64,000 nucleotides of DNA from Parcubacteria group bacterium GW2011_GWD2_42_14 (GTDB lineage Bacteria > Patescibacteriota > Minisyncoccia > Phycocordibacterales > UBA12088). The notes under the pieces are model-generated. The model was not told the origin of the DNA, did no database searches, and was given only the letters and a program-made list of their open reading frames with translations. Shown piece after piece: positions 12,395-29,270 of this stretch; within the stretch, counting starts at the first letter, position 1; every line of letters begins with the position of its first letter. The position numbers and the translations under genes were made by a program. The stretch lies in NCBI GenBank assembly GCA_000998045.1, contig LCCS01000007.1:5220-69219 (forward strand). The letters are read 5' to 3'.

Positions 12395-12811
12395 CAAAAT
12401 ACCAAAAGAGCCCCAACTCATGGGAACATCTAGGTCATATACATTATTGCACAAAAATGGCTTAAAATATCTAAAAAAGTCATATATAACGCCATATACT
12501 GTGGATAGCATTTACAATTTTAAACAAAACTCACCCCGCATTTTAGGCTCTGGGTAGAAAAGCCTCTACACGTTCGTACAATCGTTTGTAGTAGAAGTAT
12601 TTTTCGATCAGCTCTCCCCCCGTGCAATAAGAGTACCCGCACTCATGACTGATACCATAGTGTGTCCAGTTTACGTAGATCCACATGTATGCAAGTTTCG
12701 CAATAGAGTATCGCAAAAAGCAAGGGTACTTTTTCTCATAACCCATAGTCTTATCACCTTACCACACACCTTGGCGTCGACGTCGGTGTATACCTGTTGT
12801 GCCGAACATTT

Positions 12812-12990: not shown

Positions 12991-14469
12991 CTACTTGAGG
13001 AGCTTGCGAACATCCTCCACCTCCTTATCAATAAGTTCTTCAGAAATATCCAATGCGTCTTTAAGTCCTTCGAGAATTGTTCTCTCCGTATCAGTCATGT
13101 TGGGTTTGTGCGATAGCTCAAGCACCTTCTCCTCAATTTCATCTCTAAGGACTCCAAAAATATTAATAAGTCTGTCTCCAACCTCAGCTGTTTCTCTTTT
13201 AATATGATCTTTTTCTTCATGAAAACGACGTCGCTCTTGAATTAACATCGTAATAACGATTGCAAGCGCACCCATAAAGAGAAGTGATACCCAATATATA
13301 GCCCCGAAGCCACTCTCCTTAATAGCATTTGGGTCCACCTCTTCAACCTTGGTTCCCGTTACAGTAACGGGGGCCTCGGCTGAGCGTTCATTGCCAGCGA
13401 AGTCGACAGCTGTAACACCTATCGTATGGTCTCCCGGATCCAAGTTGGTAATCGTATACCCGCCTGAGACTAGCTCGTTGGGCTGAACATCGCGTGGACT
13501 TTCTCCGTCTATCACAACACGATACAGTTCTACACCCGAAAGCGAGTCTTGTGCTTCAAATCGTATTTGTGCCGTTAAGTCTCCACCTACTGCAGTTACC
13601 CCAAACTCATCTGGTGGTGTGGTGTCAATTTGCAGTTTGTACGAAGTTGAACTTCCCCACCCTCCTCGATTTAAGTATTCCGCAGTGAAGTACCACGTAC
13701 CGTCCGTTATCCCCGTTTTACTCCATTCACCTACGGGCGGTTCATGTTTCTCAGTCGACGTCGCATCAGGAACATCTCCAAACGCAAACCGAACTCCAAG
13801 AACCCCATAGGGAATATCCCACGTGAATTTCGCATCTGATTTGTTATACCACACACCCTGTTCTGGATGCGTAGGACTTGAGATATCAGGAGCATCCGGT
13901 GGTGGGATTTTGGTATTTCTTTCTTGTGTAGGGGTGGTGGGCGGAGTAACTGGATCAGGTGGCTTGGCTGAAGCAGGGGTGACAGTAAATGTCGCTCCCG
14001 CAGAACCCGAAAGTACGTCCTGCCCTGCACCCGCAAGTAGGGTGGATTTTGTAAATTCAACTTTAGCAGAACCTTCTGCTTTTGCCTTAAAGGTAATGGT
14101 TGCGACTGCTTTTGAGCCAGAAATAGCCGTTGTACCACCTCCAGAAAACGTAATAGTCCCACCACTTATTTTTGGTTCAACTACCCAAAGATTAAAAGGT
14201 GAACCCTCTTTTGATACTGATACAGCGGTAAGCTTGCTCGTGTCGTAGGTAATAGTCGCTTCACCCGTGTTGACCGCATCAGTACCCGCATTGACCATGA
14301 CCTTTACAGCAAAAGTTTTACCAACCTCGAAACTGCCGTCTGCTGGTGAGAGTAGGTAGCTTGCAGCCAGAGAAACCTGTGGCACAGTGAGGCCGACAAG
14401 CGAACACATAAAAAACAGAAAGAAGAGTTTCTGTCTAAAATTTGGTAATGTGAAAAAAGCCTCGCTCAT
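12991..14469 (-). CDS. Membrane-anchored surface protein. Signal peptide, cohesin-like domain, Pro-rich linker, Ig/FN3-like domains, C-terminal TM helix and a charged coiled-coil tail.
   Basis: Likely start is MSEAFFTLPNFRQKLFFLFFMCSLVGLTVPQVSLAAS at 14469; the track ORF extends to 14529 and overlaps the Hsp20 gene. The segment VGKTFAVKVMVNAGTDAVNTGEATITYDTSKLTAVSV...ATITFKAKAEGSAKVEFT matches the cohesin fold pattern. It is followed by PPDPVTPPTTPTQ and a C-terminal TM (GFGAIYWVSLLFMGALAIVITML) plus a K/E-rich tail. Confidence 0.5.
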   Translation of the reverse strand: MSEAFFTLPNFRQKLFFLFFMCSLVGLTVPQVSLAASYLLSPADGSFEVGKTFAVKVMVNAGTDAVNTGEATITYDTSKLTAVSVSKEGSPFNLWVVEPKISGGTITFSGGGTTAISGSKAVATITFKAKAEGSAKVEFTKSTLLAGAGQDVLSGSAGATFTVTPASAKPPDPVTPPTTPTQERNTKIPPPDAPDISSPTHPEQGVWYNKSDAKFTWDIPYGVLGVRFAFGDVPDATSTEKHEPPVGEWSKTGITDGTWYFTAEYLNRGGWGSSTSYKLQIDTTPPDEFGVTAVGGDLTAQIRFEAQDSLSGVELYRVVIDGESPRDVQPNELVSGGYTITNLDPGDHTIGVTAVDFAGNERSAEAPVTVTGTKVEEVDPNAIKESGFGAIYWVSLLFMGALAIVITMLIQERRRFHEEKDHIKRETAEVGDRLINIFGVLRDEIEEKVLELSHKPNMTDTERTILEGLKDALDISEELIDKEVEDVRKLLK

Positions 14470-14494
14470 GCTCAATGTTTGCGAGCGAGGAATC

Positions 14495-14992
14495 TTATTG
14501 TAGACCCTGCGCTCCGTGATCGTCTGCACGTACTACATTCAAACGAAGTCCTTTCCCTTGCTTACCAATGAGTGGCAAACGTAGTGCCAATACGCCATCT
14601 TTTGTTTTTGCCTCTGCTCGTTCAGGATCTATCTCATCCGGAAGAATTATTTGTCTGTAAAAATCCCCCCAATGGCATTCCTCGAGAGTAAAATCACCAT
14701 TTTGTGAGGCGTGTGATTCGTGCATGAGCTGTTCTGGACGAAGGGCCGAACCTTGAATACTTACCACGTCGTTGTCTCCTGCAATAGAAACGTCCAAGGT
14801 CTGCATATCCATACCTGCAAGTTGTGCATAGATGACTATTTCTGTATCAGATTGAAACACATCGACAGGAAGCTGAAGTGCGTGACCAGGAAGTACTGGC
14901 TGTGAACTTTTAGCTGACGCTGAGGCATCTACAAGCTGGCCTTCTTTGTCAACAAGACCTTTCCCTTTTAGTTTATCCATAAAAGTACCCAT
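14495..14992 (-). CDS. Hsp20/alpha-crystallin family small heat-shock protein
   Basis: Alpha-crystallin domain VDVFQSDTEIVIYAQLAGMDMQTLDVSIAGDNDVVSIQGS ... GDFYRQIILPDEIDPERAEAKTKDGVLALRLP. Confidence 0.8.
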   Translation of the reverse strand: MGTFMDKLKGKGLVDKEGQLVDASASAKSSQPVLPGHALQLPVDVFQSDTEIVIYAQLAGMDMQTLDVSIAGDNDVVSIQGSALRPEQLMHESHASQNGDFTLEECHWGDFYRQIILPDEIDPERAEAKTKDGVLALRLPLIGKQGKGLRLNVVRADDHGAQGLQ

Positions 14993-15140
14993 AAGAAATG
15001 AACTATGACTAATGAACTACTAATGCGATGTGATGGCGACCCCTCTTAGAGTAGCAACTGCATTCGTAAGAACAGTATACCACCACTTATGCATGAAAAA
15101 TAAAAAAGTGCTGAGGGTAAAATGGGGATAAAGAAAAAGA

Positions 15141-15200
15141 GTTACCGAGTTGCGAGTAAAGCGAGTATCGAGTTAACGAGTTACGAGTGTCGATGAAGAT
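15141..15200. repeat. CGAGT-rich short-repeat cluster (GAGTTACCGAGTTGCGAGTAAAGCGAGTATCGAGTTAACGAGTTACGAGTG) containing the GAGTAAAGCGAGT core
   Basis: Six CGAGT units spaced ~8 nt apart. The ACTCGCTTTACTC core (as its reverse complement) recurs at ~29240 and ~63507, and TTGCGAG recurs at 21290, 25280 and 52678. Confidence 0.4.
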
Positions 15201-15345
15201 AGCAAAGAAAAACATCGCACAGAACTTTTGTTTTTGAGTGAATATCGAGGCACCAAGGAGTCATGTTTACGAGTCGTATTATCTATACGATGAGAAAACT
15301 GACGACGCAGGTAACAAAGATATTCGCCAAAAACAGAAGTTCTGG

Positions 15346-17214
15346 TTAGCCTGTCCAGTAGAATAGAAGTATAGAAAAGTCCGGTAGCGAGACCGTTCCG
15401 TCTTTGTTTACATCCGCTTCAACACTTGCAGTGTTCCAGTTAAAAAGAAGTATAGAAAAGTCGATTAAGTTTACCGAATCGTCACAGTTTAAATCTCCTC
15501 GACTCAGACAATCATCATCAGCAACCGTAACACCTAACCCTATTGTTTTTCTGGCACTTTTATCGCTCTCCACAAGGCCGTTTGGCATTTTCCCTTGTGC
15601 GACAAACTCATAGGTCCCCTTAGGAAGTTTCAGAGTAGGTATAGTGATAGTCCATGCTCCACTTCCATCTGCGGTAGTTGTACTCACAATATCTGCTGTA
15701 GAAACCTCAGCAAGCTTTGGACGTAGCCATGTCGTAAGCACTGCTTGTGGTGCAGAGTATCCCGTTACAACGAGGGGTGTCCCAGGCGATATGGAAGCTT
15801 CAGCCACAGACACCGTTGGAGGCAACATAATGTTATTGAGAGAGTTAAGGGTGTTTGTTTGTAGCCATAGTGTGGTTGAGAAGGTAGCACTGCGTACACC
15901 TTTGCTGTCTACTGCATAAATGCCAAACGAGTACGATCCTCGATCAAGACCTTCTGTTTTGTCACTAAATTCTCCACCTCCTCCTGCTCCCTTCGTAGTT
16001 ATGGTGACACCGTCCCTGAGGAACGAAACGGTAGCCCCAGGGTACGCCCATCCTTCTATACTTACATCAGCTTGAGGAAGCTTGGTACCTGTACCATCGT
16101 CTCCACCCCCGCTCGAACTACCTCCACCACCATCTCCGCCAGCAGGGCTTGTACCACTCCCTGACCCCGTAGAACCGCCTCCTGTACCGACATCGTCTCC
16201 TGTCCCTGATCCACCCTGCACCGTTGTCGAAGAAACTCCCGTGCCCGTGCCCGTGCCCGTCGTCGTGGCTGTCGACGTCGCACTTCCTGGCATGAGACCT
16301 ATAGTAAACGAGAGTTCGTAATCCGGATCCATTTCGTTTTCTCGGAAGTCCACACATCGGAGAAAGTAGTCGTACGTCGTGTCGTCTTCAAGATTGCTCA
16401 CTTGTGCAAAATGCCACTTAACAAGTCCTGAGGAAGTGCCTGTGAAGGAATATGGCATCAGGTCATACGCCATACTTGAGGTTGCAAAACGACAGTAAGC
16501 AGCTTCATCGGTAGTTACAAACATTTCTACTGCTCGGGTACCAACCTGTAACAGTCCGGTAGGCACCGCCGACAAAATAACTGGGGGTATTTGGTCAGTC
16601 GTATCGACTGGTCCGGCTGTCACCTGATCAACTATAGCTATCATAGTGCGCCCATAGTCCAGCTCGACATCACTGGTATTGTATGTGTACACTGTCACGG
16701 GGTATGAGCTAGTCGCAGCACTTAACTGTGCTTGCACATCTCCAGTAGCACCATACTGAGCATTCGTGCCTATTTCTACCACTACTTCGTTATTAGCAGG
16801 TATGCCAAGGGAGGTATTTAGATCAAAACGTATCTTCCCTGCACTTCCACTCGTGACCGTCACATCATCAGTACCAGCTGTTTGTATGGAGGATAGTGGT
16901 CTCTCGGTGTACGGTCCCCCTGGAACTGCGGAGAAAGCTATATCGACGTCGGAAAAGTTCAGCGTTGCCGGCAATATAATTCCACCCTCATCAAAAACTA
17001 TTTCTATGGCGCCATTGGCAGGAACTGCTTGCGTCAGAGTAAATGTAATCTTTTGATTCGTGTACGCACTTGGGGCGCTGGTCGAGAGCAAGTCGCTAAT
17101 GCGCGTGAGGTAGCTCGTCGCATACACCCTAGAAACAAAAGTAAGTAGTACACATACAACAACCAATCCAAAAATACTTTTGTGAAATTGTGGTGTGATT
17201 TTAAAATGTTCCAT
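15346..17214 (-). CDS. Secreted surface protein with C-terminal dockerin domain (signal peptide, G/T/S-rich linker, Ig-like beta domains, tandem dockerin)
   Basis: The C-terminus DLNCDDSVNLIDFSILLFNW ... DVNKDGTVSLPDFSILLFYWTG shows two D-x-N-x-D-x-x-V-x-x-x-D-F calcium-binding segments typical of type-I dockerin. The N-terminal signal is MEHFKITPQFHKSIFGLVVVCVLLTFVSRVYA. There is a GTGTGTG/GGS low-complexity linker. Confidence 0.6.
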   Translation of the reverse strand: MEHFKITPQFHKSIFGLVVVCVLLTFVSRVYATSYLTRISDLLSTSAPSAYTNQKITFTLTQAVPANGAIEIVFDEGGIILPATLNFSDVDIAFSAVPGGPYTERPLSSIQTAGTDDVTVTSGSAGKIRFDLNTSLGIPANNEVVVEIGTNAQYGATGDVQAQLSAATSSYPVTVYTYNTSDVELDYGRTMIAIVDQVTAGPVDTTDQIPPVILSAVPTGLLQVGTRAVEMFVTTDEAAYCRFATSSMAYDLMPYSFTGTSSGLVKWHFAQVSNLEDDTTYDYFLRCVDFRENEMDPDYELSFTIGLMPGSATSTATTTGTGTGTGVSSTTVQGGSGTGDDVGTGGGSTGSGSGTSPAGGDGGGGSSSGGGDDGTGTKLPQADVSIEGWAYPGATVSFLRDGVTITTKGAGGGGEFSDKTEGLDRGSYSFGIYAVDSKGVRSATFSTTLWLQTNTLNSLNNIMLPPTVSVAEASISPGTPLVVTGYSAPQAVLTTWLRPKLAEVSTADIVSTTTADGSGAWTITIPTLKLPKGTYEFVAQGKMPNGLVESDKSARKTIGLGVTVADDDCLSRGDLNCDDSVNLIDFSILLFNWNTASVEADVNKDGTVSLPDFSILLFYWTG

Positions 17215-17222
17215 GTATCTAC

Positions 17223-18055
17223 TTATTTGCTCTCAACTGACACAACACATCTGAATCCCAATGCATCACCATTAAAGGTTTCGGGACTTGCCGCATAGGT
17301 AGCATATAACCCTGCATCATCATAGTTATTGAAATAGCCTCCACGCATAATTCCCGCCTCAATGTTTGAGTCTGTCCAAAATCTATCATTAAAATAATTT
17401 GCACTTTTTTCTGTCCCAGTCGTATATGCCAGACAAACCCTGATTCGGGAAGAATGGAGTTTTGATACATACCGAGAGCAACCGTACCTTCTACCCACTC
17501 CCACACGTTTCCTATCATATCGTATGCACCCGCAGATGAAATGCATCGCGTTCCACTGCCTGTTTCAGAAACTCCCTCTGCCCTGTTGTGTGCAACATTG
17601 CAATCTTCTTCGTTCCAGCCACTCGCCTCATCGGGTGTGCCAAACGCTGCAACAAACCATTCGTTAGGTGTCGGTAGTCGTTTACCCGCTTGTGCGCACG
17701 CGCGCTCTGCAAGCTCTCGCGTTACATGTCTCCATGGTATACGCTCTTTTCTAGCAACAGGTATACACGTAGTGTTTGAAAGGTTAAACATTGATTCATC
17801 GATATTTTTGGGATCTTGATAGAAGCACGCCTCATGTGCAGACACCTCGTACACATCAATACAGAAAGGATTAAGTGTTTTTGAGATGTACACCATATTG
17901 TCAGGACATGAACCCTGAAATGGTCGCGTAGAAAACAGCAAACCACCAAGTAACGTGTGGTACTGGTCGCGAAAGTCAAAAGCATTCACAGCAAGTGTGG
18001 CGAGAAGCGTTGAACCCACAACGACCGCTATGGTCTTTGCCAGATTTCTAAGCAT
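17223..18055 (-). pseudogene. FGE-sulfatase (SUMF1/EgtB/PvdO) family protein, frameshifted at an A6/T6 homopolymer
   Basis: ORF 17219..18055 carries a signal/TM and the hallmark GAYDMIGNVWEWVEG. The C-terminal hallmark RGGYFNN...GDALGFRCV is in the -1 frame (ORF 17223..17546). The two frames overlap around T6 at ~17405-17410 (minus-strand cagAAAAAAgtg); one extra A would give a single ~277-aa protein. Confidence 0.55.
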
Positions 18056-18136: not shown

Positions 18137-18250
18137 AAGTTGAAAGTTAAATGTTTAAAGTTAAAAGTTAAATGCACCTCGCCTTCGGCGAACACAATCC
18201 CGCACATGCGGGATTGTGAACTTTCAACTTTAAACTTTCAACATTTAACT
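18137..18250. repeat. Hairpin element: tetraloop hairpin CGCCTTCGGCG plus perfect GC hairpin CAATCCCGCACATGCGGGATTG, flanked by inverted AAAGTT-type AT-rich repeats. Probable terminator for gene 18245..18610.
   Basis: The palindrome was read directly. The flanks are GAAAGTTAAATGTTTAAAGTTAAAAGTTAAATG and GAACTTTCAACTTTAAACTTTCAACATTTAAC. A similarly built element is at 58436-58545. Confidence 0.45.
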
Positions 18251-18610
18251 CACTAGTGATTTTCGTCTCTTTGAATCAAGATAAAAGTTCATTAAGATAA
18301 GTCCCAAGAGACCACTACCCATGAGCGTGATAAGAAGTAGCACTTTTCTATCGCCTGAACCTTGTGATGTGGTAAGAGCAAGCTCACGAGCATCAAGCAT
18401 CTTCTCTCTTTCATCTAACTGTGCTACAAGAGTATTCACACCATTCTCCTCTACGCCAGCATACACACCGACAGTGTTTGCGGTCAAATCAGAATCTTGT
18501 TGAAGTGCAATACTCCAACTCTGCCCGAGAAGTAGTGCAAAGGCTGAAAACAATACAAGAGTCGTATTAAGGAGAAGTTTGATTTCTCTCTTTGAGTATA
18601 ACCAAAACAT
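18245..18610 (-). CDS. Small membrane protein with coiled-coil segment (hypothetical)
   Basis: ORF with N-terminal and C-terminal hydrophobic helices; no recognisable motif. Confidence 0.45.
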   Translation of the reverse strand: MFWLYSKREIKLLLNTTLVLFSAFALLLGQSWSIALQQDSDLTANTVGVYAGVEENGVNTLVAQLDEREKMLDARELALTTSQGSGDRKVLLLITLMGSGLLGLILMNFYLDSKRRKSLVS

Positions 18611-18628: not shown

Positions 18629-19708
18629 TTAGGCAAAAAAGGCAACCATTCCTATAAACAGTAAAGCGAGTATGACAAGTATCCACGTTGTAGTTCGTAC
18701 CAATCTTTTTGCAAAGGATACATTCTGTGACTTGTGCGTACTTTGTGGTGTTTGCCCTGCTTTCTTGAGCATACTTCGTACATACCTACGTACACCCACG
18801 ATAAAGGTGAGGAGTACTATTGCAAGTGCACCGAATGCTATTCCAATTTCCTTCAATGGTAATACCCAGAAACTTACCTCTTTTGTGATAGTTCTTTTTT
18901 GTGTATCACCGAAGAGCACACTTGCTTCCGCCGTATATCTTCCGAGTGCAAAGCCGTCAAATTCCCATGTGGTATCAAACACTCGGTCGAATCGAGGAAG
19001 TATAGCCCCCCCTGTCTCATTAAACTTCACCTGCCCTACTTCATTACCAAACATATCAAAGATATTGATAATACCAAGGGGTCGTTGATGTATCGTACCA
19101 GTGTTCTCTATTTTGGTTTTAAATATTACCGACGGCGTCGTAACGATAGCCTTTTCGGTAAAAAATTCACGGAAGAGCATGTCGTCGTTTATCTCACCTC
19201 GCACTCTCAGGTTCACGAGTGACGCTACGTGGAAGCCCACTCCAGCTCCTGTCTCGGTAACCTTGTCAGCTTCTCGCGTTACGAAGAAAGCGGCAAAGTA
19301 ACTCCCCGGAGATGCATCTGTAGGTACTTCTATGCGATACGGCACTGCGACAGATTCACCTACCTCCATGGTAACAGATTCAAGAGAGGGCTTCAGCCAT
19401 GCAGCTGCTTCCAAAGGATCATTGTTATTCACTTCATCTGCAAACGAGGGCGTACCTGTCTCACTCATCCCTGTAATGTTTCGCGTACCGATATAGTATG
19501 TTTGTTTTCCCCCCTCTTCGTTTGAGACGGTAAGCACACCCTCAAGCACCTGCCCTGCATCCACCACTTCGTCTATCTGGCTCGGCTGGACCTTAACTGC
19601 AAGACCGCCCTGCGCATGTGCACATGTACTCTGGAGAGTTAGGAGCCCTATTAAAAACATACCACTACCCAGCAATTTTATACTTTTAAGTGTACTGTGT
19701 TTTACCAT
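18629..19708 (-). CDS. Cell-surface protein, paralog 1 of 3. Signal peptide, two beta-rich domains, C-terminal TM anchor and basic tail, matching the DufA/CscA (DUF916-DUF3324-like) architecture.
   Basis: Signal peptide MVKHSTLKSIKLLGSGMFLIGLLTLQSTCAHAQ. Motifs shared with 21419..22690 and 22902..24218: PGSY(F/Y)A, N(T/K)GN/T-H-x-P-x-G-I-I-N-(I/M)F, GRY(T/K)AEA, and FWVLP-KEI followed by a TM helix then RRYVRSMLKK. Confidence 0.55.
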   Translation of the reverse strand: MVKHSTLKSIKLLGSGMFLIGLLTLQSTCAHAQGGLAVKVQPSQIDEVVDAGQVLEGVLTVSNEEGGKQTYYIGTRNITGMSETGTPSFADEVNNNDPLEAAAWLKPSLESVTMEVGESVAVPYRIEVPTDASPGSYFAAFFVTREADKVTETGAGVGFHVASLVNLRVRGEINDDMLFREFFTEKAIVTTPSVIFKTKIENTGTIHQRPLGIINIFDMFGNEVGQVKFNETGGAILPRFDRVFDTTWEFDGFALGRYTAEASVLFGDTQKRTITKEVSFWVLPLKEIGIAFGALAIVLLTFIVGVRRYVRSMLKKAGQTPQSTHKSQNVSFAKRLVRTTTWILVILALLFIGMVAFFA

Positions 19709-19804
19709 AAGAAAATTAAATGATTTTTCAATCTATAAACCTCCGTACAAAAAATGTGCGGAGGTTTATAGTATAGCATTAGCGTAAAGTATACCTCGCT
19801 ACTT

Positions 19805-20260
19805 CTAGAATACTGGCGTAGCAATGTAGGTAAGTGTAGCAGTGTAATCTTTTGCAGCTTCCTGTAGATTGCTAATCTCAACTTTGTAAGCTACGGTCGT
19901 TGTACCAACTCCCATACCACCAGACTGTAATGCAGGTAGAGGGTGATAAAACACTTCTACAGGATTGTTTATGAAGTTACCAACATACGCCGCCTGTGCA
20001 TTTCCCCACAGACTCGGTACGGTACTTGAACTCACTACGTTGTCGTCAGAGGTAAGTCCCCAGTGACCATAGGTATCAATCGAACCAAGCACTGGTGTAG
20101 GACCATCCCATAAGGTACTTGAGGCAATACCTCCTGCATCTGGTCCGTTAACAAACGGATTAATCGTCGCGCCGTTTCCTGATGTAAGCGTTTGGTCTGC
20201 AAACACGGTAACGCTGAAGCCGTTAAGTGCGTTTGTGTCAACTCGAAGTTGCTGTGCCAT
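19805..20260 (-). CDS. WxL-like C-terminal domain fragment (contains HWGL and a terminal YTATLTYIATPVF motif). Likely the 3' part of a single gene together with 20371..20973.
   Basis: Upstream of the ATG the frame stays open (…FGISIKGVAGGVSVNDDVTTTF…) back to 20401. A 1-nt shift within 20374-20401 would fuse it to the upstream ORF, which ends …VTVTASVSL*. Confidence 0.45.
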   Translation of the reverse strand: MAQQLRVDTNALNGFSVTVFADQTLTSGNGATINPFVNGPDAGGIASSTLWDGPTPVLGSIDTYGHWGLTSDDNVVSSSTVPSLWGNAQAAYVGNFINNPVEVFYHPLPALQSGGMGVGTTTVAYKVEISNLQEAAKDYTATLTYIATPVF

Positions 20261-20370
20261 AAGTTTCGCTGTATCAGGAGCAATGATACCGAAAGGAACT
20301 GTAGTTGCTGTAGAAGAAGCAAAGGTGGTAGTGACGTCATCGTTGACACTAACACCTCCTGCAACTCCCT

Positions 20371-20973
20371 TTATAGAGATACCGAAGCGGTAACAGTAAC
20401 ATCATCAATAACTGCAATACGAGTATCTCCTGAATCAGTCATCGTTCCTCCAAGACGTATCACGTATGAATCGGCTGTTGCAGGGTTCGCAATGAAGTTT
20501 GTAACTCCCGCAACAATTTGTACAACGGTGCCGGCAGTAATGCTGTCAGTTGGACATACGGTAAGTTCAATAAAATCAGCAGTGTCATCTACATCACTCG
20601 CGTACATCTCACTCGCGGCTCCAGTACAGTTTCCAACAGCAGCGACTTCGGTGATAGTACCGCCTGAAACAGCTGAAATATTGATATCACCAAGAGCAAG
20701 ACCTGTCAGGTCAAACTCTTGACCATCTGGATCAAAAGTAACACGTAGTGTTTCCGATGCAGCTATGGCATTTACTAACTCAAACTGTAATGTGTGCGTG
20801 GCATCTAAACCTATATCTGAATCTGATAATGTGTCGCTAAACTCAACAACGTTGTCTGCGTTTGCGTTATGAATCATGGCAGGCAAGCCTAAACTCCATG
20901 CAAGCAATGCGACAATAGTCGCTAGAGCGATAGTTCTATAGTGCATTGGAAATGCGAATGCTATATTTTTCAT
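20371..20973 (-). CDS. Secreted protein N-terminal part (signal peptide MKNIAFAFPMHYRTIALATIVALLAWSLGLPAMIHNANA). Probable 5' part of the split WxL-like gene.
   Basis: Signal peptide followed by a beta-rich T/D/G/V domain; ends 28 nt inside the open upstream extension of 19805..20260. Confidence 0.45.
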   Translation of the reverse strand: MKNIAFAFPMHYRTIALATIVALLAWSLGLPAMIHNANADNVVEFSDTLSDSDIGLDATHTLQFELVNAIAASETLRVTFDPDGQEFDLTGLALGDINISAVSGGTITEVAAVGNCTGAASEMYASDVDDTADFIELTVCPTDSITAGTVVQIVAGVTNFIANPATADSYVIRLGGTMTDSGDTRIAVIDDVTVTASVSL

Positions 20974-21276
20974 GCGTGATTGTTAATAATAATTAATAAA
21001 AAGGGCTGACTAATGTATAGCTAAAAAACCTATACGTACGGATGTACATATAACAGCAATGGTGAAATGGTGAGCGAATACAATCCGCCAACTACATTCA
21101 ATAATGATTATACATGGTATATAGCTTTTAAATGTAATAATACTGTGGATAACACGACGTAAATTTTAAATTTACAATTTGAAATTTGAAATTTGAAAAC
21201 AGCGCTGCACTCTTCTCTACAACGAATTGAAGGAAGAGAAATATAAAACCATCCACAAATTAACCATTGAAATTTT

Positions 21277-21345
21277 TTCGTCTTTGCGAGTCGAAACGAA
21301 GCAAACCATATATGGATCGCTTTGTTGCGACTCGCGATGACAATC
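21277..21345. repeat. Repeat copy 1: CGTCTTTGCGAGTCGAAACGAAGCAAACCA...GCGACTCGC (hairpin GCGAGTCG/CGACTCGC)
   Basis: Near-identical 30-mer plus inverted partner also at 25271-25335. Confidence 0.4.
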
Positions 21346-21418
21346 CTACTGGTTAGTTGTTGCTTGTATAAGCAATACTTTCCGAGCAGTTATTTGAATC
21401 TTTTATTTCCCCAATACA

Positions 21419-22690
21419 CTACTCTTCTTGTAGTTCTATAGTGCTTCCATCAGGACGAACCTCCGTCACACTGTAGTCACGCGTAACAGTCATCACATCC
21501 TCAAAGAAAAAGCTCAGCACAAAGCCACCAAACGCCACAACCACAACAGAAACAAAAAACAACCAGTACTTGTAAAGAAATGTACCGAAGGTGAGTACCT
21601 CTGTATGTTGCTGGTGATGTGACATGTACACAGCCTGCACATCAGGCTCTATCACTTCACGCGCAGGGGTACCTACACGTCTCAAATCTATCAACCCTGC
21701 TTTAATAGGCTGTACCAGTGTGCCTAGTTTAATACGAGGAACTTCAGTAGCTACATACTTACTCTGTGGTACATGCGCTGTCTGAAAGTCACCCTGCATC
21801 TGCAAATGTGCGGTTTCGAGAGCGAGTGCACGACGAATGTAGAGTCGTAGTACCCATCCCACAAAGAACACGAGTGCGAGTAAACCTCCAACAATCTGTA
21901 ATAACGGCACTACTGGCAGTACATAGAAGTATGTCGTCGCAAGTGCTGACTGCTTGGCGTCCTTACCATACCCTATCGTTGCTTCTGCTTTATATCTCCC
22001 TATATCCCACAAGCCCGTATCTGACTCCCATGTAAAGCTAAATTTGCGCACGCTGTTTGGAAGCACGTTTCCATAATCCTTTTGCTGGTTAATAGGAATC
22101 GTTCCTCGCACCTTTCCAAACATGTTGTAGATAACAATATTTCCCTGCGGTATGAGGTGTACATTTCCTTTGTTCTCAAACCGTAGTGAGAGTTTTGCTG
22201 TTGCAGTGTCATACACCATTTCTTCCGTAGCAAAATCTCGTATCTGTCCTTTCTCAATCACATCACCGGAAACGGAAAGAAAGATGAGTGAGGCTATGGA
22301 ACTGGTAACATTCACCGTGTTGCCTTCCACCCCTCTCCCCTCTGGAGATCTGTTTCCTATCAGGATAGCTGCATAATGTCCGCCTGGGGCGGCATCATTC
22401 GGAACAGTAATAGTAAGTGGGAGTTTGTACGTCTGCTCCCGCACAATAGAAAACGCTTCTTGAGGCACAGTAATCCATCCTGCTAGTGTAGAGCTCTCCT
22501 CACTTTCAGCAGTAGGAGTAATGAAGACAGGACTTCCACTTTCACCTGATGGGCGAAAAAGTACCGGGTCTGCAAATAAAGAGAGGTCGTACTGGTTGTT
22601 GTTCACGACCGTGATATATGAAGACCATGTCTCCCCCGGTTGCAGGTTTATCTGGAAGAGAGGCGGAGCAATCGTTAAACTCAAACCCAT
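21419..22690 (-). CDS. Cell-surface protein, paralog 2 of 3 (DufA/CscA-like architecture: beta domains, C-terminal TM anchor, basic tail)
   Basis: Start taken at ATG 22690 (MGLSLTIAPPLFQ…); an alternative TTG ~22741 would add CCVSIFSPTSLLFASE. The track ORF runs on to 22972 only because repeat element B is open in this frame. The C-terminal half is a large hydrophobic and repeat-like tail. Confidence 0.5.
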   Translation of the reverse strand: MGLSLTIAPPLFQINLQPGETWSSYITVVNNNQYDLSLFADPVLFRPSGESGSPVFITPTAESEESSTLAGWITVPQEAFSIVREQTYKLPLTITVPNDAAPGGHYAAILIGNRSPEGRGVEGNTVNVTSSIASLIFLSVSGDVIEKGQIRDFATEEMVYDTATAKLSLRFENKGNVHLIPQGNIVIYNMFGKVRGTIPINQQKDYGNVLPNSVRKFSFTWESDTGLWDIGRYKAEATIGYGKDAKQSALATTYFYVLPVVPLLQIVGGLLALVFFVGWVLRLYIRRALALETAHLQMQGDFQTAHVPQSKYVATEVPRIKLGTLVQPIKAGLIDLRRVGTPAREVIEPDVQAVYMSHHQQHTEVLTFGTFLYKYWLFFVSVVVVAFGGFVLSFFFEDVMTVTRDYSVTEVRPDGSTIELQEE

Positions 22691-22773
22691 CTCAGATGCA
22701 AAGAGAAGTGAGGTGGGACTGAAAATACTGACACAGCACAAAAAGACAGTGCAGGCACGACCGATATTGTACT

Positions 22774-22899
22774 TATAGGACTTATGCAAACGAGTGGAGT
22801 TCGAGGCGAGCAAACAAAATAATACGAGGCGTATAGATAGTACGGTGAGTATTATTTTGTGTAGCACAACGAAGAAATCCGCCGCTTGCGTATGTCCTA
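22774..22899. repeat. Structured intergenic element copy B (short form, ~125 nt). Outer inverted repeat ATAGGACTTATGCAAACG / CCGCTTGCGTATGTCCTAT.
   Basis: Core GGAGTTCGAGGCGAGCAAACAAAATAATACGAGGCGTA...GAGTATTATTTTGTGTAGCACAACGAAGAAATCCGCC. It lies between the stop of 22902..24218 and the start of 21419..22690. Confidence 0.6.
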
Positions 22900-22901
22900 T
22901 C

Positions 22902-24218
22902 TTACCTTCTCGAAGATAACTGAATAACATTTCCATGTGTTTTAGTATTCCCTTTTGTATCCCTTGGCGCAAGAGTCACTGTGGCACCATACGTATGTGC
23001 TTCATTTCTGCGAGATACCTGCTCTCGTGCCTGCCTTGCGTCCGTAAGGTGCAGATGGGTTACCGATGTATGTGTCTGTGGTATACGAGCAGATACTTGT
23101 GGTATTCGACTGGTTCGTCGGACATCACTACGCTCTACGAGGTCCTCATCTACACGTGCTTCCGCGCGCTTGCGAGCACGTGCTGGTTGCGCCATGGAGC
23201 TCATATGCACAATGTATGTACCTACTACGGCAAGTACGAGAACTCCCATCAAGGCTGCCGTAATCTCTTTCCATGGGAAGACCCAGAAGTACACCGTGTC
23301 TTGTACGCTTGCAAGCTGGTTTTCTCCATACTCAAGATCAAGGAACGCTTTATACTTTCCAAACCTGCCCACAGCACTCCATGACGCCGCAAGTTGTCTT
23401 TTATTTTCAGGATTTATTTCTTCACCGTCAGCGTTTAAAGGAATACTCCCCACCTCCTCTCCTTTGCGGTTAAAGATGCGTATTGAACCCCTTGGTTCAA
23501 GCAAACGGTTCCCCACGTTTTCAAGCAAATATGAAAAAGATACTGAGTTGCCAAGCACTACACTATCTTCACTTATAAAATTTCCCAACTGTAATCGCTC
23601 TATCGCATTGTCTTCCACCTCTACATTGAGCATGAGTGCGCTTCCTTCTATACCTGCTTCTGCTTCGGTGCGACGTGCCCCTTCACGAAACTGTAGTCGC
23701 GCGTAGTAGCTTCCGGGCTTTGCACTCAAGTTGACATGTATCAAGTACGGAATTTTTCGACTCTCTCGAGGGTCAAGATCTATCACTCCTCGGGTGATTT
23801 CTACCCAGTTTGCCAAAGACGTCGATAGGTCCGATGCTCCTGGCCCCACAAACTCTTTTGCACCTTCAGTGGGGTCGATATTTTCTACTGATATGTATAC
23901 ATCTACTCGCTTGTCAGTATTGTTGGTAACAATCACCTCTTTTTTGATAATGTCCCGTGGTTTTGCTTTTTCATTTGCTACTACTGGAGAAACAGAAAAC
24001 GTACTCAACCCCATACTCGTGTCTGGTATCGAGCCATCAACTTCTGCCTCTGCTTCTACTTCTACTTCTACTGGTACAGCATCCTCTATCTCACCTTGCG
24101 GAAGTGGTTCTTCTGCAAATACTAGTACTGTAGTAGTAATTAAGGTATACGCAAAAAAACAGGCCAACATACCGAAAAGAAAGGCCTGACGTACGGCTAC
24201 CTGAGTGTTTACCCCCAT
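22902..24218 (-). CDS. Cell-surface protein, paralog 3 of 3 (DufA/CscA-like architecture). Signal peptide, acidic EVEVEAEAEV stretch, two beta domains, TM anchor and Arg-rich tail.
   Basis: MGVNTQVAVRQAFLFGMLACFFAYTLITTTVLVFA signal; SAKPGSYYARLQF, GSIRIFNRKGEEVGSIPLN, and FWVFPWKEITAALMGVLVLAVVGTYIV TM followed by ARARKRAEAR. Confidence 0.55.
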   Translation of the reverse strand: MGVNTQVAVRQAFLFGMLACFFAYTLITTTVLVFAEEPLPQGEIEDAVPVEVEVEAEAEVDGSIPDTSMGLSTFSVSPVVANEKAKPRDIIKKEVIVTNNTDKRVDVYISVENIDPTEGAKEFVGPGASDLSTSLANWVEITRGVIDLDPRESRKIPYLIHVNLSAKPGSYYARLQFREGARRTEAEAGIEGSALMLNVEVEDNAIERLQLGNFISEDSVVLGNSVSFSYLLENVGNRLLEPRGSIRIFNRKGEEVGSIPLNADGEEINPENKRQLAASWSAVGRFGKYKAFLDLEYGENQLASVQDTVYFWVFPWKEITAALMGVLVLAVVGTYIVHMSSMAQPARARKRAEARVDEDLVERSDVRRTSRIPQVSARIPQTHTSVTHLHLTDARQAREQVSRRNEAHTYGATVTLAPRDTKGNTKTHGNVIQLSSRR

Positions 24219-25719: not shown

Positions 25720-28650
25720 TTAGAATTTTTTTGTCTCTATAACTTGTCCTTCTGGGGCGTTTGGATGCAGTTTTTTAAGCATGGCTTCGTGTTGTTCCAA
25801 CTGTAGCATTACATCTTTCGGTTTCATACCATCATAGGCACTCCAGTCAATGGAAAACTTGGCAAGTGGTGTATCGCTAGCACCTTTAAGTGCTACTGCG
25901 ATGTCAGTTAACTGCGCATGGACCATGTCCCTAAAGGTGTGGTTGTTTTCGGAGTTAAAAAATTGATGTGCGGTGAGCGAACGCCATTCAGGCTCTTCTG
26001 TAGGATACTTAATCTCTACCAGCTTTGTTATTTCAGGTGTAACTTCAATAGGCGGAAGTTTTGCAACGGCTCTCGTGCCATATACAGGATCTGTATTCCA
26101 CCCCACTTTTGGTGCCTCATACTTAGCGAGAGGTATTCGCTCAACTTCTGGAAGAGTGGTTTTACTTTCAGGAACTGCCGTATCTGGTTTACTTTCAGGT
26201 ACTGCCGTATTTTTAGGAACGGTAACTGGCTCTGGTATTGGTTCAGCTGTTGGTAGATTGTCTGGAGGGGTAGCAAGTTTAGGTCTGAAAGGTTCTACTT
26301 CTTCCAAACGCAAATGAAGTTTGTTGATAAGCTCTCCAAGCGTATCGTTATTTTTTACACTTTGTTCAATAATATCAGCAACATTTGGTATCTTCGGTTG
26401 TAGGGAATGCTCAAGCTTGTCCACAAGATTATATGTTAAAGCTTCAACCCCCGCACCCATCGTTACAGGGGGCTTATTATCAATGGTATACGTCAATGAT
26501 TTGCTTTTATCAAAAATATCCTCCATACGCACATGACTCATTGGTCCCCAGTAACTCATAATCAAGCTCCTTTGACCTTGAAGGACGGAACCTTGAAAGT
26601 ACCCCTCTTTGAATAAATCTGCTAATGCCGGTCGTGTAGCTGCACCATGGTAGTCAGGACCAATTTGCTCTTTAGCATGGGCTAGATCTTCCTTAATAGT
26701 CATCGGTGGTGCTTCTTTCGTAGGTTCAGGGACATCTTTAACCTCCGGTTTGGTAGCGTCTTCCAGTGGAAGAGATACTGGTGGTTTTTCTACAGGAGGA
26801 GTAACCTCAACCGGAACACTTTTGTGTCCGTGAATTTTTTCGATTTCAGTACTGAGCAAATCTTTATCAAGTGTAGCCTCATAAACGCCATTTACTTTTA
26901 CCTTATGCCAATCTTCGCCCTTGATATTGAAATCCCTCATCATATTAGGATCCTTTTCAATTTCTTGCTGAATCAAGTGGGCTATTTTACCCCGTTCAAC
27001 ATCAGTGAGATTTGGGTAGGTCTTCTTCACCCATGTATCGTTCTCAAGAAAATCTTGCAGTTCACCCTCTACACTTGAGCCTGCCTCATAGACACCTTTG
27101 AGCGTAACGCCTTTTTCAGAAATTATTTTAGATACGTCTGGGGTTGGTTCTAAAGGTGCCTCATTGAGATTTTTTGGTATTTCATAAGGTGGAACATCTT
27201 TCAGAGGTGGGGTTTGTGTATCTGTAGAAGCTTCTTCTCCAATACCAAGTTTTTGAAGTAGCTCTGCGATATCAGGCTTAGCTGAATATGCGTCCACCGC
27301 AGACTTTGGAATGACAAGTGACGCCTCTTCTGCAGAGGAGTACTTTTTTATTTCATCTTCAGGAAGAGTAGCAATGTCACCAGACTCGGGCTCTGGAACC
27401 TTAATGTCTACACCGCCGAAGTGAACGTCCTCTTGAGAACCTTCTGGTACTTTGATATCTACACCACCGAAGTGAACGTCCTCTTGAGAACCTTCTGGTA
27501 CTTTGATATCTACACCACCAAAGTGTATGTCTTTTTCAGAGAAAGTCGCAACATCCCCAGACTCAGGCATGTGCGTATCTACAGTTCCTGGTTTAGGTAT
27601 TTTTCCTTCTATAGGCTCTGGGGATTTTTCTTTGAAATCTTGAGGAATTCCAGATGATGAAGAATTCCCAAATACCGCTTCATACGCTTCTCCTCCCGCA
27701 ATTGATCCCACCCCACCAGCTGCCATTGCAGCTCCGACAGCAGCAACTGAAGACACCTTCTTTTTTAAGCGAACATCTCTCTGAATCGCTCGACGGTCTT
27801 CTCGGCTCTGACGAAGTGACGTTTCTTTAAATGATTCGTGCTGTTTTTTTAAAGCGCGTTCACCAAACTCTTCAGACTTTTTATCCCCATATCGTTTTGT
27901 CTCCAAAGCCGCAAAACCACCAAAAAACGTCCCAAATCCTTTACGTGCAGCCATGGCTCCCCCTGTAGCAAGTGCCCCTGCTGTAGCCCAACCTAATGCA
28001 CCCGCCCCCAAACCTGCAAGACCTGCCAGGCCGGCTCCATACAATGCCCGTTTTTTTAATGGAAGCTTTCTATACCACAACAAGAAAGCCTTCGATCCTC
28101 GAACAAGCTTATACCGCGATTCACCTTTTTCGTTTTCTTGGTAGCGTAGTCCCTCAAGCAGTTGTACCTCGTTGTCTATGTGGTGCTCGAGCATAGTCTC
28201 GTGACGCGCAACATACTCTGTAAGCGCATCATCTTTACTTTTTTTGGAAAGTTGCTCTTTTACAAAGTATTCCATTCGCTCTTGTCGATGTCCACGCAAC
28301 CCCTCAAGTAAGTTGTCGTAGGTATACTGTGCCTGAAGCATTTCTTGTTTTGCATTATCAAGTTCAGGTGTTGCGATAAACCGACGGAGCATTCCGGCAC
28401 CTCTTCGCTCTTCCTCATATTTTTTACTCGCTTCAAGGAATACTGCTTCTGCGTCTTTGACCTGAGCTCGATACGCTTTATAGTTTTCGCGAATTTCTTT
28501 CCACGCTTCATCTCTATTCCTCACTCTCTTGCAAACCTTCCGTGGTTGCACCACTCGCACTTGTTTCTTCAAACTCGGGGCTTGCACTGTCCTGTCGTTC
28601 AGGCTCTTCCAGCCCTTCGGGAAGTGTAAGGTCTGTTTCTGTACTTTCAT
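25720..28650 (-). CDS. Large coiled-coil / glycine-zipper membrane protein with a 3x tandem 17-aa repeat (hypothetical)
   Basis: 976-aa ORF. Gly-zipper segments LYGAGLAGLAGLGAGALGWATAGALATGGAMAA and AAVGAAMAAGGVGSIAGG. Repeats DVHFGGVDIKVPEGSQE. Start uncertain: ATG 28650 overlaps the upstream gene by 137 nt, with an alternative in-frame GTG near 28520. Confidence 0.55.
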   Translation of the reverse strand: MKVQKQTLHFPKGWKSLNDRTVQAPSLKKQVRVVQPRKVCKRVRNRDEAWKEIRENYKAYRAQVKDAEAVFLEASKKYEEERRGAGMLRRFIATPELDNAKQEMLQAQYTYDNLLEGLRGHRQERMEYFVKEQLSKKSKDDALTEYVARHETMLEHHIDNEVQLLEGLRYQENEKGESRYKLVRGSKAFLLWYRKLPLKKRALYGAGLAGLAGLGAGALGWATAGALATGGAMAARKGFGTFFGGFAALETKRYGDKKSEEFGERALKKQHESFKETSLRQSREDRRAIQRDVRLKKKVSSVAAVGAAMAAGGVGSIAGGEAYEAVFGNSSSSGIPQDFKEKSPEPIEGKIPKPGTVDTHMPESGDVATFSEKDIHFGGVDIKVPEGSQEDVHFGGVDIKVPEGSQEDVHFGGVDIKVPEPESGDIATLPEDEIKKYSSAEEASLVIPKSAVDAYSAKPDIAELLQKLGIGEEASTDTQTPPLKDVPPYEIPKNLNEAPLEPTPDVSKIISEKGVTLKGVYEAGSSVEGELQDFLENDTWVKKTYPNLTDVERGKIAHLIQQEIEKDPNMMRDFNIKGEDWHKVKVNGVYEATLDKDLLSTEIEKIHGHKSVPVEVTPPVEKPPVSLPLEDATKPEVKDVPEPTKEAPPMTIKEDLAHAKEQIGPDYHGAATRPALADLFKEGYFQGSVLQGQRSLIMSYWGPMSHVRMEDIFDKSKSLTYTIDNKPPVTMGAGVEALTYNLVDKLEHSLQPKIPNVADIIEQSVKNNDTLGELINKLHLRLEEVEPFRPKLATPPDNLPTAEPIPEPVTVPKNTAVPESKPDTAVPESKTTLPEVERIPLAKYEAPKVGWNTDPVYGTRAVAKLPPIEVTPEITKLVEIKYPTEEPEWRSLTAHQFFNSENNHTFRDMVHAQLTDIAVALKGASDTPLAKFSIDWSAYDGMKPKDVMLQLEQHEAMLKKLHPNAPEGQVIETKKF
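27400..27555 (-). repeat. 51-bp coding tandem repeat, ~3 copies (CACCGCCGAAGTGAACGTCCTCTTGAGAACCTTCTGGTACTTTGATATCTA)
   Basis: Direct read; encodes DVHFGGVDIKVPEGSQE x3 inside gene 25720..28650. Confidence 0.6.
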
Positions 28651-29221: not shown

Positions 29222-29270
29222 GTATTAACTCAGAACTCGTCACTCGTCACTCGCTTTACTCTTATTTAGA
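29222..29270. repeat. ACTCG-repeat cluster (GAACTCGTCACTCGTCACTCGCTTTACTC) just 3' of the giant gene stop. Preceded by an ACTAGTA-repeat/near-palindrome ACTAGTATACATACTAGT (~29185-29215).
   Basis: Shares the ACTCGCTTTACTC core with 15141-15200 (reverse complement) and 63497-63523. Confidence 0.35.

Follow-up and report, generated by a model that had tools for sequence, protein, structure and literature searches.

A probable Pam-type pilus operon core with WxLIP-related membrane proteins in a Paceibacteria/Parcubacteria-like CPR bacterium

The region described here, located within a 64,000-nucleotide stretch (the window) from the MAG of an ultrasmall Patescibacteria (CPR) bacterium of a Paceibacteria/Parcubacteria-type lineage, is probably the core of an operon for a Pam-type pilus. 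It is a distant branch of the Pam systems and not an orthologous Pam operon, since no score obtained with the NCBIfam Pam models reaches its curated cut-off. The Pam pilus was described in Ca. Mycosynbacter amalyticus, in which PamA and PamB are pilins, and PamC and PamD are membrane-anchored chaperones proposed to build a thin adhesive fibre from donor-strand-exchange pilins (PamA–D accessions WP_260763287.1, WP_260763280.1, WP_260763277.1, and WP_260763284.1; 10.64898/2026.03.03.709456).

The two-domain Pam-type pilin gene (19805..20973, minus strand; 394 aa when intact) was recognized from a fused query, its intact relatives, and NCBIfam model NF058581 (CPR_Pam_pilin_C). In the protein, a signal peptide and an N-terminal β-sandwich are followed by the linker strand VTVTAxVDTIFTFSING, which leads to a C-terminal Ig-like domain that ends in YTATLTYIATPVF. 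The conserved linker strand and the last strand rank among the most conserved segments of the pilin; likewise, the donated linker and its binding site are reported to be among the most conserved in the Pam preprint (10.64898/2026.03.03.709456). A search with the fused 388-aa query retrieves over 764 intact, full-length relatives of about 390 aa each, and the family comprises 2475 clusters at 50% identity. The AF2 model of an ortholog (P0120; pLDDT 91) contains two blocks of strands, at residues 42–188 and 202–390, and a linker (191–200) modeled with low confidence (pLDDT 65). In the window, the gene appears as two ORFs, 20371..20973 and 19805..20260, which the earlier note took for a split WxL-like gene. 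Both ORFs, the string HWGL, and the terminal string given above are indeed present; the split itself is an assembly artefact. Two assemblies made independently from the same population show no other sequence difference but have 16 additional bases, GATACAATATTCACCT, between window positions 20380 and 20379, and in them the 394-aa gene is intact; at this site, ‘CNNC’ stands in the NCBI record, another assembly has a 22-nt gap, and four contigs end. Another small frame error of this type affects the FGE-sulfatase gene (17219..18055).

The C-terminal domain of the pilin is homologous to that of the Pam pilin model. NF058581 is matched by the intact pilin of the same organism (E 1.1e-6), by 21 of 53 pilin relatives (best E 4.2e-7), and by a 445-aa neighbour protein in a related locus (L002; E 2.1e-7). 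These scores of 28–31 bits, significant by E-value yet below the curated cut-off of 55 bits, indicate a homologous domain that would belong to a distant subfamily. The same domain forms the last ~170 residues (window 29269..29775) of a giant surface protein of 3333 aa (29266..39267, minus strand), in which it is preceded by the linker-like strand ATLSFSIQGV. The giant C-terminus matches the pilin family by BLASTP (E 2e-10), by hhalign (98.6% probability, E 1.3e-15), and by hmmsearch --max (E 2e-19; residues 3165–3336 of the 3336-residue stop-to-stop ORF, i.e., 3162–3333 of the 3333-aa protein), and it also matches NF058581 (E 2.2e-6), within the same 28–31 bits. A large protein with the pilin C-terminal domain is encoded directly upstream of the chaperone-like genes in many related loci. 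We propose that the giant protein is an adhesin subunit of the fibre.

Three genes of the minus strand encode WxLIP/PamC-D-like proteins, and the earlier proposal that these genes (then delimited as 18629..19708, 21419..22690, and 22902..24218) are paralogs is borne out by their alignment, which has ~28% identity and 45 invariant columns. The motifs listed at that time are recovered as PGSY.A, EN.GN..L.P.G.I.I.N, GRY.AE, and FWV.P.KEI, and each of the three proteins matches an HMM built from 57 relatives. In paralog 1 (22902..24218; 438 aa), the signal peptide is followed by an acidic spacer, two β-sandwich domains, a single TM helix, and then a long basic tail, with hydrophobic segments at residues 13–31 and 318–336; its orthologs in two related loci (L001 and L002) occupy the identical operon position. 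Paralog 2 (21419..22789; ~456 aa) has two C-terminal TM segments, and its reading frame is open up to 22972. Its most likely start is the in-frame TTG at 22789, predicted to provide the signal peptide HKSYKYNIGRACTVFLCCVSIFSPTSLLFA, and its orthologs start at the equivalent position. With the previously assigned start, ATG at 22690, no signal peptide would be encoded; paralog 2 has one only if the start is moved to this TTG. Paralog 3 (18629..19708; 359 aa) comprises a signal peptide, two β-sandwich domains (approximately residues 38–170 and 177–282), and two TM helices; its AF2 model (pLDDT 89) reproduces the two domains and places the C-terminal helices at 285–316 and 332–358. An N-terminal hydrophobic segment, predicted from hydropathy to be a signal peptide, is present in all three paralogs; that of paralog 3 is slightly under the hydropathy cut-off and is seen as helix 7–24 in the AF2 model. 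C-terminal hydrophobic 19-mers are found in all three as well.

At the level of family profile and structure, the evidence supports the membership of the paralogs in the DUF916-DUF3324-TM (DufA/CscA/WxLIP) superfamily, a likeness first suspected in the earlier note. PF06030 is matched by 38 of 57 members of the paralog family (best E 1.1e-9), and the family profile matches the solved E. faecium WxLIP1 (EfmWxLIP1; 9i25_C, 9i1y_A) with E 1.2e-8. When compared by hhalign with four Firmicutes ‘DUF916 and DUF3324’ proteins, the family aligns over 238 columns covering both domains (98.5% probability, E 1.7e-15). Searched directly by hmmscan, the three window paralogs match none of DUF916, DUF3324, and WxL (PF06030, PF11797, and PF13731) at E≤1, so that the assignment holds at the family-profile and structure level only. 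The fold is at the same time chaperone-like: two-domain superpositions of the paralogs on pilus chaperones extend over 143–188 residues.

The last conserved component is a 121-aa membrane protein (18245..18610, minus strand), recognized by its conserved position, alignment (29 invariant columns), and hydrophobic segments. Its N-terminal hydrophobic segment is followed by a conserved VGVxAGVEEN strand and a helix, and it ends in a C-terminal TM segment with a basic tail; its gene follows the last chaperone-like gene in loci L001, L002, and L090–L099. Speculatively, it may be a fibre anchor or terminator. In the window, neither a CTD-only PamT nor a clear RbmA-like PamR gene was recognized, and NF058579 (CPR_pilus_PamT) is unmatched by the window proteins; candidates that may serve in place of PamT/PamR are the giant and the 121-aa TM protein.

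The operon is conserved. Chaperone-like genes lie within 10 kb of the pilin gene and on the same strand in 71 of 80 GTDB loci, all 80 of which are from Patescibacteria; in about half of the loci the order is pilin, chaperone, chaperone, pilin, chaperone. An indirect link to PamA–D is provided by the NCBIfam models together with the pam-like operons of L007 and L009, whose chaperones belong to the same family. P0112 and P0114, two remote homologs of the paralogs that form part of the family alignment, adjoin NF058579 matches (E 8e-13 and 1.3e-6; 28–48 bits vs a cut-off of 240). Moreover, a Peptidase_S74 tail-fibre-like gene is present in both L007 and L009, the L009 operon adjoins ATP synthase genes too, and the gene surroundings of both loci match the Pam neighbourhood of the preprint (10.64898/2026.03.03.709456). 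ATP synthase genes are absent from the examined parts of the window. A broader profile of the C-terminal domain matches small PamT-like proteins (hhalign 71% probability, E 3.7e-5).

These features suggest a mechanism of fibre assembly. In each secreted pilin, the N-terminal β-sandwich is followed by the conserved linker strand and by an Ig-like C-terminal domain that is incomplete. Polymerisation would proceed by donor-strand exchange, each subunit inserting its linker strand into the groove in the C-terminal domain of its neighbour. The three paralogs would be membrane-anchored counterparts of the PapD/FimC chaperones, as proposed for PamC/PamD. After Sec export, they would remain tethered via their C-terminal TM helices, cap the pilin groove with a strand of their own, and pass subunits to the growing fibre. 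The 3333-aa protein would enter the fibre as a giant adhesive subunit via its pilin C-terminal domain. There is no usher because there is no outer membrane; the Gram-positive-type envelope anticipated in the earlier note agrees with this organism being a Patescibacterium, for which a monoderm-type envelope fits.

According to a different and, in our opinion, unlikely reading, the locus is the CPR counterpart of the WxL/csc surface-display cluster known from Firmicutes, in which membrane WxLIP-like proteins hold non-covalent small and giant partners at the cell wall as an adhesion platform, not a polymerised fibre. Solid WxLIP homology, apparently across both domains and the TM helix, favours this reading, as does the presence, within four genes of WxLIP-like genes, of two proteins that share their C-terminal domain, one small and one very large. 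So do two colinear motifs of that domain, FG...V.(D/T)...G(F/W)x(V/L)xV and YTxTLT(Y/W)x(A/L)xxP, the second at the very C-terminus. A WxL domain is defined by two Trp-x-Leu motifs, situated on conserved stretches of 18 and 13 residues. The small and large pair mirrors the published description of WxL clusters (PMC10599100, PMC9772566), which calls for at least one WxLIP and at least two WxL proteins within four genes (PMC10599100); among the window ORFs, two Pfam WxL proteins (PF13731) are not found.

Other observations speak against this reading. None of the window ORFs and none of the 53 pilin relatives match Pfam WxL (PF13731) at E≤1, and hhalign of the pilin family against real WxL proteins aligns the two WxL motif regions colinearly but stays at the level of a control domain (P 0.022, probability 2%, vs P 0.015). 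The view of the middle gene as a WxL gene is not supported. Our own WxL HMM has no match at E≤1e-3 among 4978 ORFs of 81 loci; enrichment is marginal at most, with 2 pilin proteins in the top 50 (~1 expected) and 7 in the top 100 (~2 expected), none of them individually significant. At the aligned positions the WxL tripeptide is missing and the pilin family has instead NGF(S/A)V(T/S)V and TLTYIATPVF; the HWGL string, once regarded as resembling a WxL motif, does not align with the first WxL motif. Furthermore, Firmicutes WxL proteins match no Pam model, no LPXTG partner gene was found, and the NQIDKxxxYFDLK motif (PMC10599100) is missing from the paralogs, the CPR family being gapped in hhalign opposite the Firmicutes nQ.d.n..YF.L. 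The partner domain matches, on the other hand, a pilin model that goes back to filaments seen by cryo-EM in a different CPR bacterium. A cohesin-dockerin (cellulosome-like) scaffold, in which the paralogs are generic Ig-like spacers or anchors devoid of chaperone or assembly function, is very improbable, since the WxLIP-specific homology and the two-domain superpositions exceed generic Ig similarity and the tight coupling, in 71 of 80 loci, is with the pilin family, cohesin and dockerin genes being present only in the closest relatives.

The proposed Pam-type pilus operon can be compared with four known systems. The pond-water fibrils TLP-1a/b, which assemble by donor-strand exchange (CryoSeek, PMC11494351; PDB 9ikk), show only 14% identity and differ in that the TLP-1 protomer is single-domain with an N-terminal donor strand (PMC11494351); its closest predicted relative is from a Flavobacteriales MAG. 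Chaperone-usher pili (PapD/FimC/CfaA/CsuC, Pap/Fim) have an outer-membrane usher, which is lacking here; their chaperones are periplasmic, whereas those of this locus would be membrane-tethered, and their donor strand is an N-terminal extension rather than an inter-domain linker. Sequence similarity to PapD-like chaperones was not detected, as no PapD-like chain is listed among the family profile matches.

The WxLIPs are the closest demonstrated homologs of the paralogs, which counts against the fibre-assembly reading. The homology apparently spans both β domains; the parts follow in the same order (signal peptide, two β-sandwich domains, TM helix, basic tail), the sizes are similar (337–365 aa in Firmicutes vs 359 aa for paralog 3), and both are clustered with small and large secreted proteins sharing a C-terminal domain. 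In contrast, identity to WxLIPs (PF06030, PF11797; PDB 9i1y, 9i25) is only 11–14%, the window proteins are individually below every Pfam threshold, a second TM segment occurs in paralogs 2 and 3, no WxL domain is detectable in the partner proteins, and the locus has no LPXTG or sortase partner. The role proposed for WxLIPs is scaffolding of WxL proteins on peptidoglycan, as opposed to the fibre assembly proposed here.

From the Pam pilus operon, the locus differs in its HMM scores, about half the curated cut-off, as befits a distant subfamily, and in its Paceibacteria/Parcubacteria-type host, Pam being reported mostly from Saccharimonadia and Microgenomatia (10.64898/2026.03.03.709456). It also has three chaperone-like paralogs instead of two, a 3333-aa protein bearing the pilin C-terminal domain, and cohesin, dockerin, HSP20, and FGE-sulfatase genes attached to the operon. 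Both systems combine, in one operon, pilins with several PapD/FimC-like two-domain proteins that have a C-terminal TM helix; in both, all components have signal peptides, there is no usher, and the occurrence is CPR-only, and the C-terminal domain here is found by the Pam pilin HMM (E 1e-6 to 4e-7). The sequence link between WxLIPs and Pam-type chaperones, which connects the last two of these systems, appears to be unreported so far.

Most probably, the locus represents a distant Pam pilus variant and not the csc/WxL-type cluster, with three DufA/CscA-like paralogs around a split WxL-like gene, that the earlier note had proposed. From 12991 to 41007, every gene lies on the minus strand. Transcription proceeds from a 576-aa protein to a 3333-aa protein (29266..39267), four small or medium-sized genes, paralog 1 (22902..24218), paralog 2 (21419..~22789), the "split" or middle gene (20973..19805), paralog 3 (18629..19708), a 121-aa membrane protein, an FGE-sulfatase-domain gene (17219..18055), a dockerin-domain protein (15346..17214), an HSP20 gene (14495..14992), and a cohesin-domain protein with a TM segment (12991..14529). 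The last element is a giant minus-strand ORF of more than 4170 aa (2..12511), cut by the left end of the window. The locus is also found in groundwater metagenome assemblies and in GCA_003518505.1, and the 359-aa product of paralog 3 is 100% identical to an NCBI hypothetical protein labeled "Patescibacteria group bacterium".

The three paralogs share ~28% identity and 45 invariant columns, and the motifs that the earlier note quoted for them are present in their alignment. An in-frame TTG at 22789 is the most likely start of paralog 2; with it, a signal peptide is gained, and orthologs begin at the matching place. Direct Pfam and NCBIfam scans of the paralogs gave nothing usable (DUF916, DUF3324, and WxL were all without a match in hmmscan at E ≤ 1), and the link to known proteins came only through their relatives. 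The suggested DUF916/DUF3324 comparison was negative for the window proteins themselves and positive, for DUF916, among the relatives, 38 of 57 of which matched PF06030 (WxLIP_PGBD, formerly DUF916; best E 1.1e-9). The paralog family profile also found the solved WxLIP1 of E. faecium (9i25_C, 9i1y_A; E 1.2e-8). Alignment of the family by hhalign with four plasmid-encoded Firmicutes "DUF916 and DUF3324 domain-containing proteins" gave 98.5% probability and E 1.7e-15 over 238 columns that cover both domains. The AF2 model of a paralog (pLDDT 89) consists of a signal helix, two β-sandwich domains, and two C-terminal helices. Since these results from family profiles and predicted structure agree, the DufA/CscA-like assignment holds as a statement about the superfamily. 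At a finer level, no match to PF11797 was obtained, and the conserved WxLIP motif NQIDKxxxYFDLK is absent from the paralog family.

The WxL character of the middle gene was not demonstrated. Its family was compared with genuine WxL proteins encoded on plasmids of Lactococcus, Lactiplantibacillus, and Enterococcus and with 13 database WxL proteins. The comparison used hhalign (local, greedy, and global), a broader profile of the C-terminal domain, and HMM rank enrichment; all of these homology tests remained at noise level. None of 53 relatives matched Pfam WxL at E ≤ 1, and hhalign against WxL gave P 0.022 (probability 2%), compared with P 0.015 for an unrelated control domain. Among 4978 ORFs ranked by the WxL HMM, the family was not clearly enriched, with 2 members in the top 50 (~1 expected) and 7 in the top 100 (~2 expected). 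By eye, two colinear motifs can be matched: FG ... V.D.RG..GWxLxV of WxL with FG ... V.T.A.NGFxVxV of the middle-gene family, and YTTTLTWxLxxxP with YTATLTYIATPVF. The first WxL motif had previously been placed at HWGL; this position is rejected, the colinear candidate being NGFSVTV. A WxL profile search of the PDB returned no solved WxL chain, and an LPXTG partner gene was looked for, with none found.

NCBIfam supplied the decisive match, which ties the middle gene and the C-terminus of the 3333-aa protein to Pam-type pilins. Of 53 members of the 390-aa pilin family, 21 match NF058581 ("CPR_Pam_pilin_C, Pam pilus system pilin subunit"; best E 4.2e-7), as do the intact pilin of the window organism (E 1.1e-6), a 445-aa neighbor in locus L002 (E 2.1e-7), and the C-terminal 147 residues of the 3333-aa protein (E 2.2e-6), every match scoring below the curated cut-off of 55 bits. 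BLASTP (E 2e-10), hmmsearch (E 2e-19), and hhalign (98.6% probability) all show homology between the last ~170 residues of this protein and the C-terminal domain of the pilins. The NCBIfam match is the sole exception to the lack of Pfam domains in the last 1500 residues of the protein. Large internal duplications are also present, namely two N-terminal repeats of ~640 aa each, starting TYQMQTGYYVG, and three repeats of "HYHWR..NG.E" modules. In the AF2 model of P0120, an intact ortholog of the middle gene (pLDDT 91), two β domains are joined by a low-confidence yet highly conserved linker. Foldseek of the pilin model against the PDB yielded only generic tandem-Ig matches (ClfB, integrins; TM-scores ~0.2), and the pilin profile found nothing among PDB sequences.

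Another line of evidence comes from two distant pam-like operons, L007 and L009, which encode distant homologs of the window paralogs (P0112 and P0114, E ~1e-13 to 1e-15). Each operon has a Peptidase_S74 tail-fibre-like gene, and that of L009 adjoins ATP synthase genes. Small proteins of both, one per pair, match NF058579 (CPR_pilus_PamT; E 8e-13 and 1.3e-6), and the broad C-terminal-domain profile aligns with the small proteins at 71% probability (hhalign, E 3.7e-5). It should be noted that these pairs of ~240–255 aa flank a chaperone-like gene (L007:7270-9893 and L009:7266-9872) and carry SGYSLTI-type and ...GLYTATTTITALPL-type motifs, which look intermediate between the window pilin C-terminal domain and the WxL motifs. 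By hhalign, their similarity to WxL is not significant.

The split of the middle gene is, judging from sequence comparison, an assembly artefact, because independent assemblies of the same population carry the gene intact. Its two ORFs lie in different frames, the second being open upstream to ~20398. The fused 388-aa query retrieved more than 764 relatives, the best of which are full-length intact proteins of ~390 aa with up to 72% identity, in which the junction is longer by some five to six residues (xVDTIF). The 200-aa N-terminal ORF, looked up as an exact sequence, gave no match. Loci L090 and L092, from two such independent assemblies, contain the gene intact (394 aa; L090:1720-2901) with an extra GATACAATATTCACCT, and the window is short by 16 nt there. 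At the break, the NCBI record reads "CNNC", a gap of 22 nt interrupts another locus (L093), and four contigs terminate. Comparison with the independent assemblies led to the rejection of a real or programmed frameshift. Analogously, the FGE-sulfatase gene is frame-broken relative to L090 around 17420-17440: it agrees with the intact 284-aa version over residues 1-208, and an overlapping ORF in another frame (17223..17546) encodes the final 69 residues. This is a second small assembly error. The split and at least one neighboring frameshift being assembly errors, neither a pseudogene nor a programmed frameshift should be inferred.

Relatives of the pilin are encoded by at least 244 loci in GTDB species genomes, and the family comprises 2475 clusters at 50% identity (E ≤ 1e-3). 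The best 80 of these 244 loci are all from Patescibacteria (with labels such as Parcubacteria, Paceibacterota, and Kaiser-, Lloyd- or Nomurabacteria), and 71 of the 80 have one to three chaperone-like genes less than 10 kb away on the same strand as the pilin. About half repeat the order of the window, in which a pilin-domain protein that is large or 450 aa long is followed by two chaperones, the 390-aa pilin, and a third chaperone. Loci L001 and L002 share further operon genes with the window (121-aa, FGE-sulfatase, and dockerin). In L001 these are joined by the HSP20 and cohesin genes, and the order FGE-sulfatase, 605-aa gene at the dockerin position, HSP20, cohesin is that of the window; L002 keeps the order in part (FGE-sulfatase and dockerin). 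The genes of 12991..17214 may form a cohesin-dockerin surface module that is coupled to the pilus operon.

Several neighboring genes deserve mention. The L001 counterpart of the giant ORF 2..12511 is 5857 aa long with a DUF2341 match; the C-terminus of the window ORF falls outside the window. Between the 3333-aa protein and the paralogs, a 976-aa protein (25720..28650, minus strand) without a Pfam or NCBIfam family match contains three tandem ~17-residue copies (EDVHFGGVDIKVPEGSQ) and a Gly/Ala-rich hydrophobic stretch, and L001 has a 1288-aa gene at the equivalent position. Just upstream of the surface-protein operon lie an ECF-type sigma factor (42587..43150, minus strand; Sigma70_r2 and r4_2 domains) and a membrane protein with a weak BrkB match (in 41809..43150, minus strand), which may form its regulator pair.

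A mechanism can be proposed for the locus. Pilins and paralogs would be exported via Sec, in keeping with the signal peptides seen (for paralog 2, inferred), and the paralogs, whose TM helices are seen, would remain tethered in the membrane. Their fold, together with AlphaFold predictions for Pam and WxLIP in two papers, suggests that the open groove in the C-terminal domain of the pilin is capped by the paralogs. On the model of PamA and PamB, an arriving pilin would push out the chaperone strand with its own linker strand, and a linear fibre would grow. The 3333-aa protein, which shares this C-terminal domain and has a linker-like strand, would presumably be built in as an adhesive subunit, and the conserved 121-aa protein (TM-strand-helix-TM) is, speculatively, a candidate anchor.

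The literature search returned no paper connecting WxL or DUF916 with Patescibacteria. Three points appear to be absent from the literature searched: the homology by sequence of Pam-type membrane-anchored chaperone-like proteins to Firmicutes WxLIP, the wide presence of Pam-type operons in Paceibacteria-type CPR, and giant proteins bearing the pilin domain. With its pilin domain, the 3333-aa protein is a candidate for the adhesin by which an uncultured episymbiont binds its host. The locus provides a statistically solid sequence bridge from the chaperone-like proteins to WxLIP/DufA of enterococci, listeriae, and lactobacilli; the WxLIP mechanism is still debated, and the bridge suggests chaperone-like strand complementation as a testable idea for WxL clusters. 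A broader and rather doubtful reading is that Firmicutes WxL/WxLIP clusters and CPR Pam pili are two branches of one ancient usher-less monoderm system of membrane-anchored chaperone and subunits. WxLIP would then serve, while tethered, as a PapD-like chaperone or anchor and complete the incomplete Ig-like fold of its partners; strand complementation, and not peptidoglycan binding alone, would hold the WxL proteins or even polymerise them. That WxL domains are highly diverged pilin-type acceptor domains is, taken by itself, likewise a tentative idea that we consider somewhat improbable.

Pam pili, first described in 2026 from a single cultured parasite of the Saccharimonadia, are presumed to establish the first contact with the host cell; the filaments of Ca. 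Mycosynbacter amalyticus were solved, with pilins assembled by donor-strand exchange via a linker (10.64898/2026.03.03.709456). The chaperones PamC and PamD resemble FimC/PapD and keep a TM helix at the C-terminus, the tip subunit PamT has just the C-terminal domain, and the RbmA-like PamR serves as the membrane anchor; ATP synthase and tail-fibre-like genes adjoin the loci, which are reported mainly from Saccharimonadia and Microgenomatia (10.64898/2026.03.03.709456). This preprint makes no mention of WxL, DUF916, or Paceibacteria. The window locus shares the Pam anatomy and differs from the described system in its three chaperone paralogs, its 3333-aa protein bearing a pilin domain, and its host, a CPR bacterium of the Paceibacteria/Parcubacteria type, the pilin family being present at at least 244 GTDB species loci.
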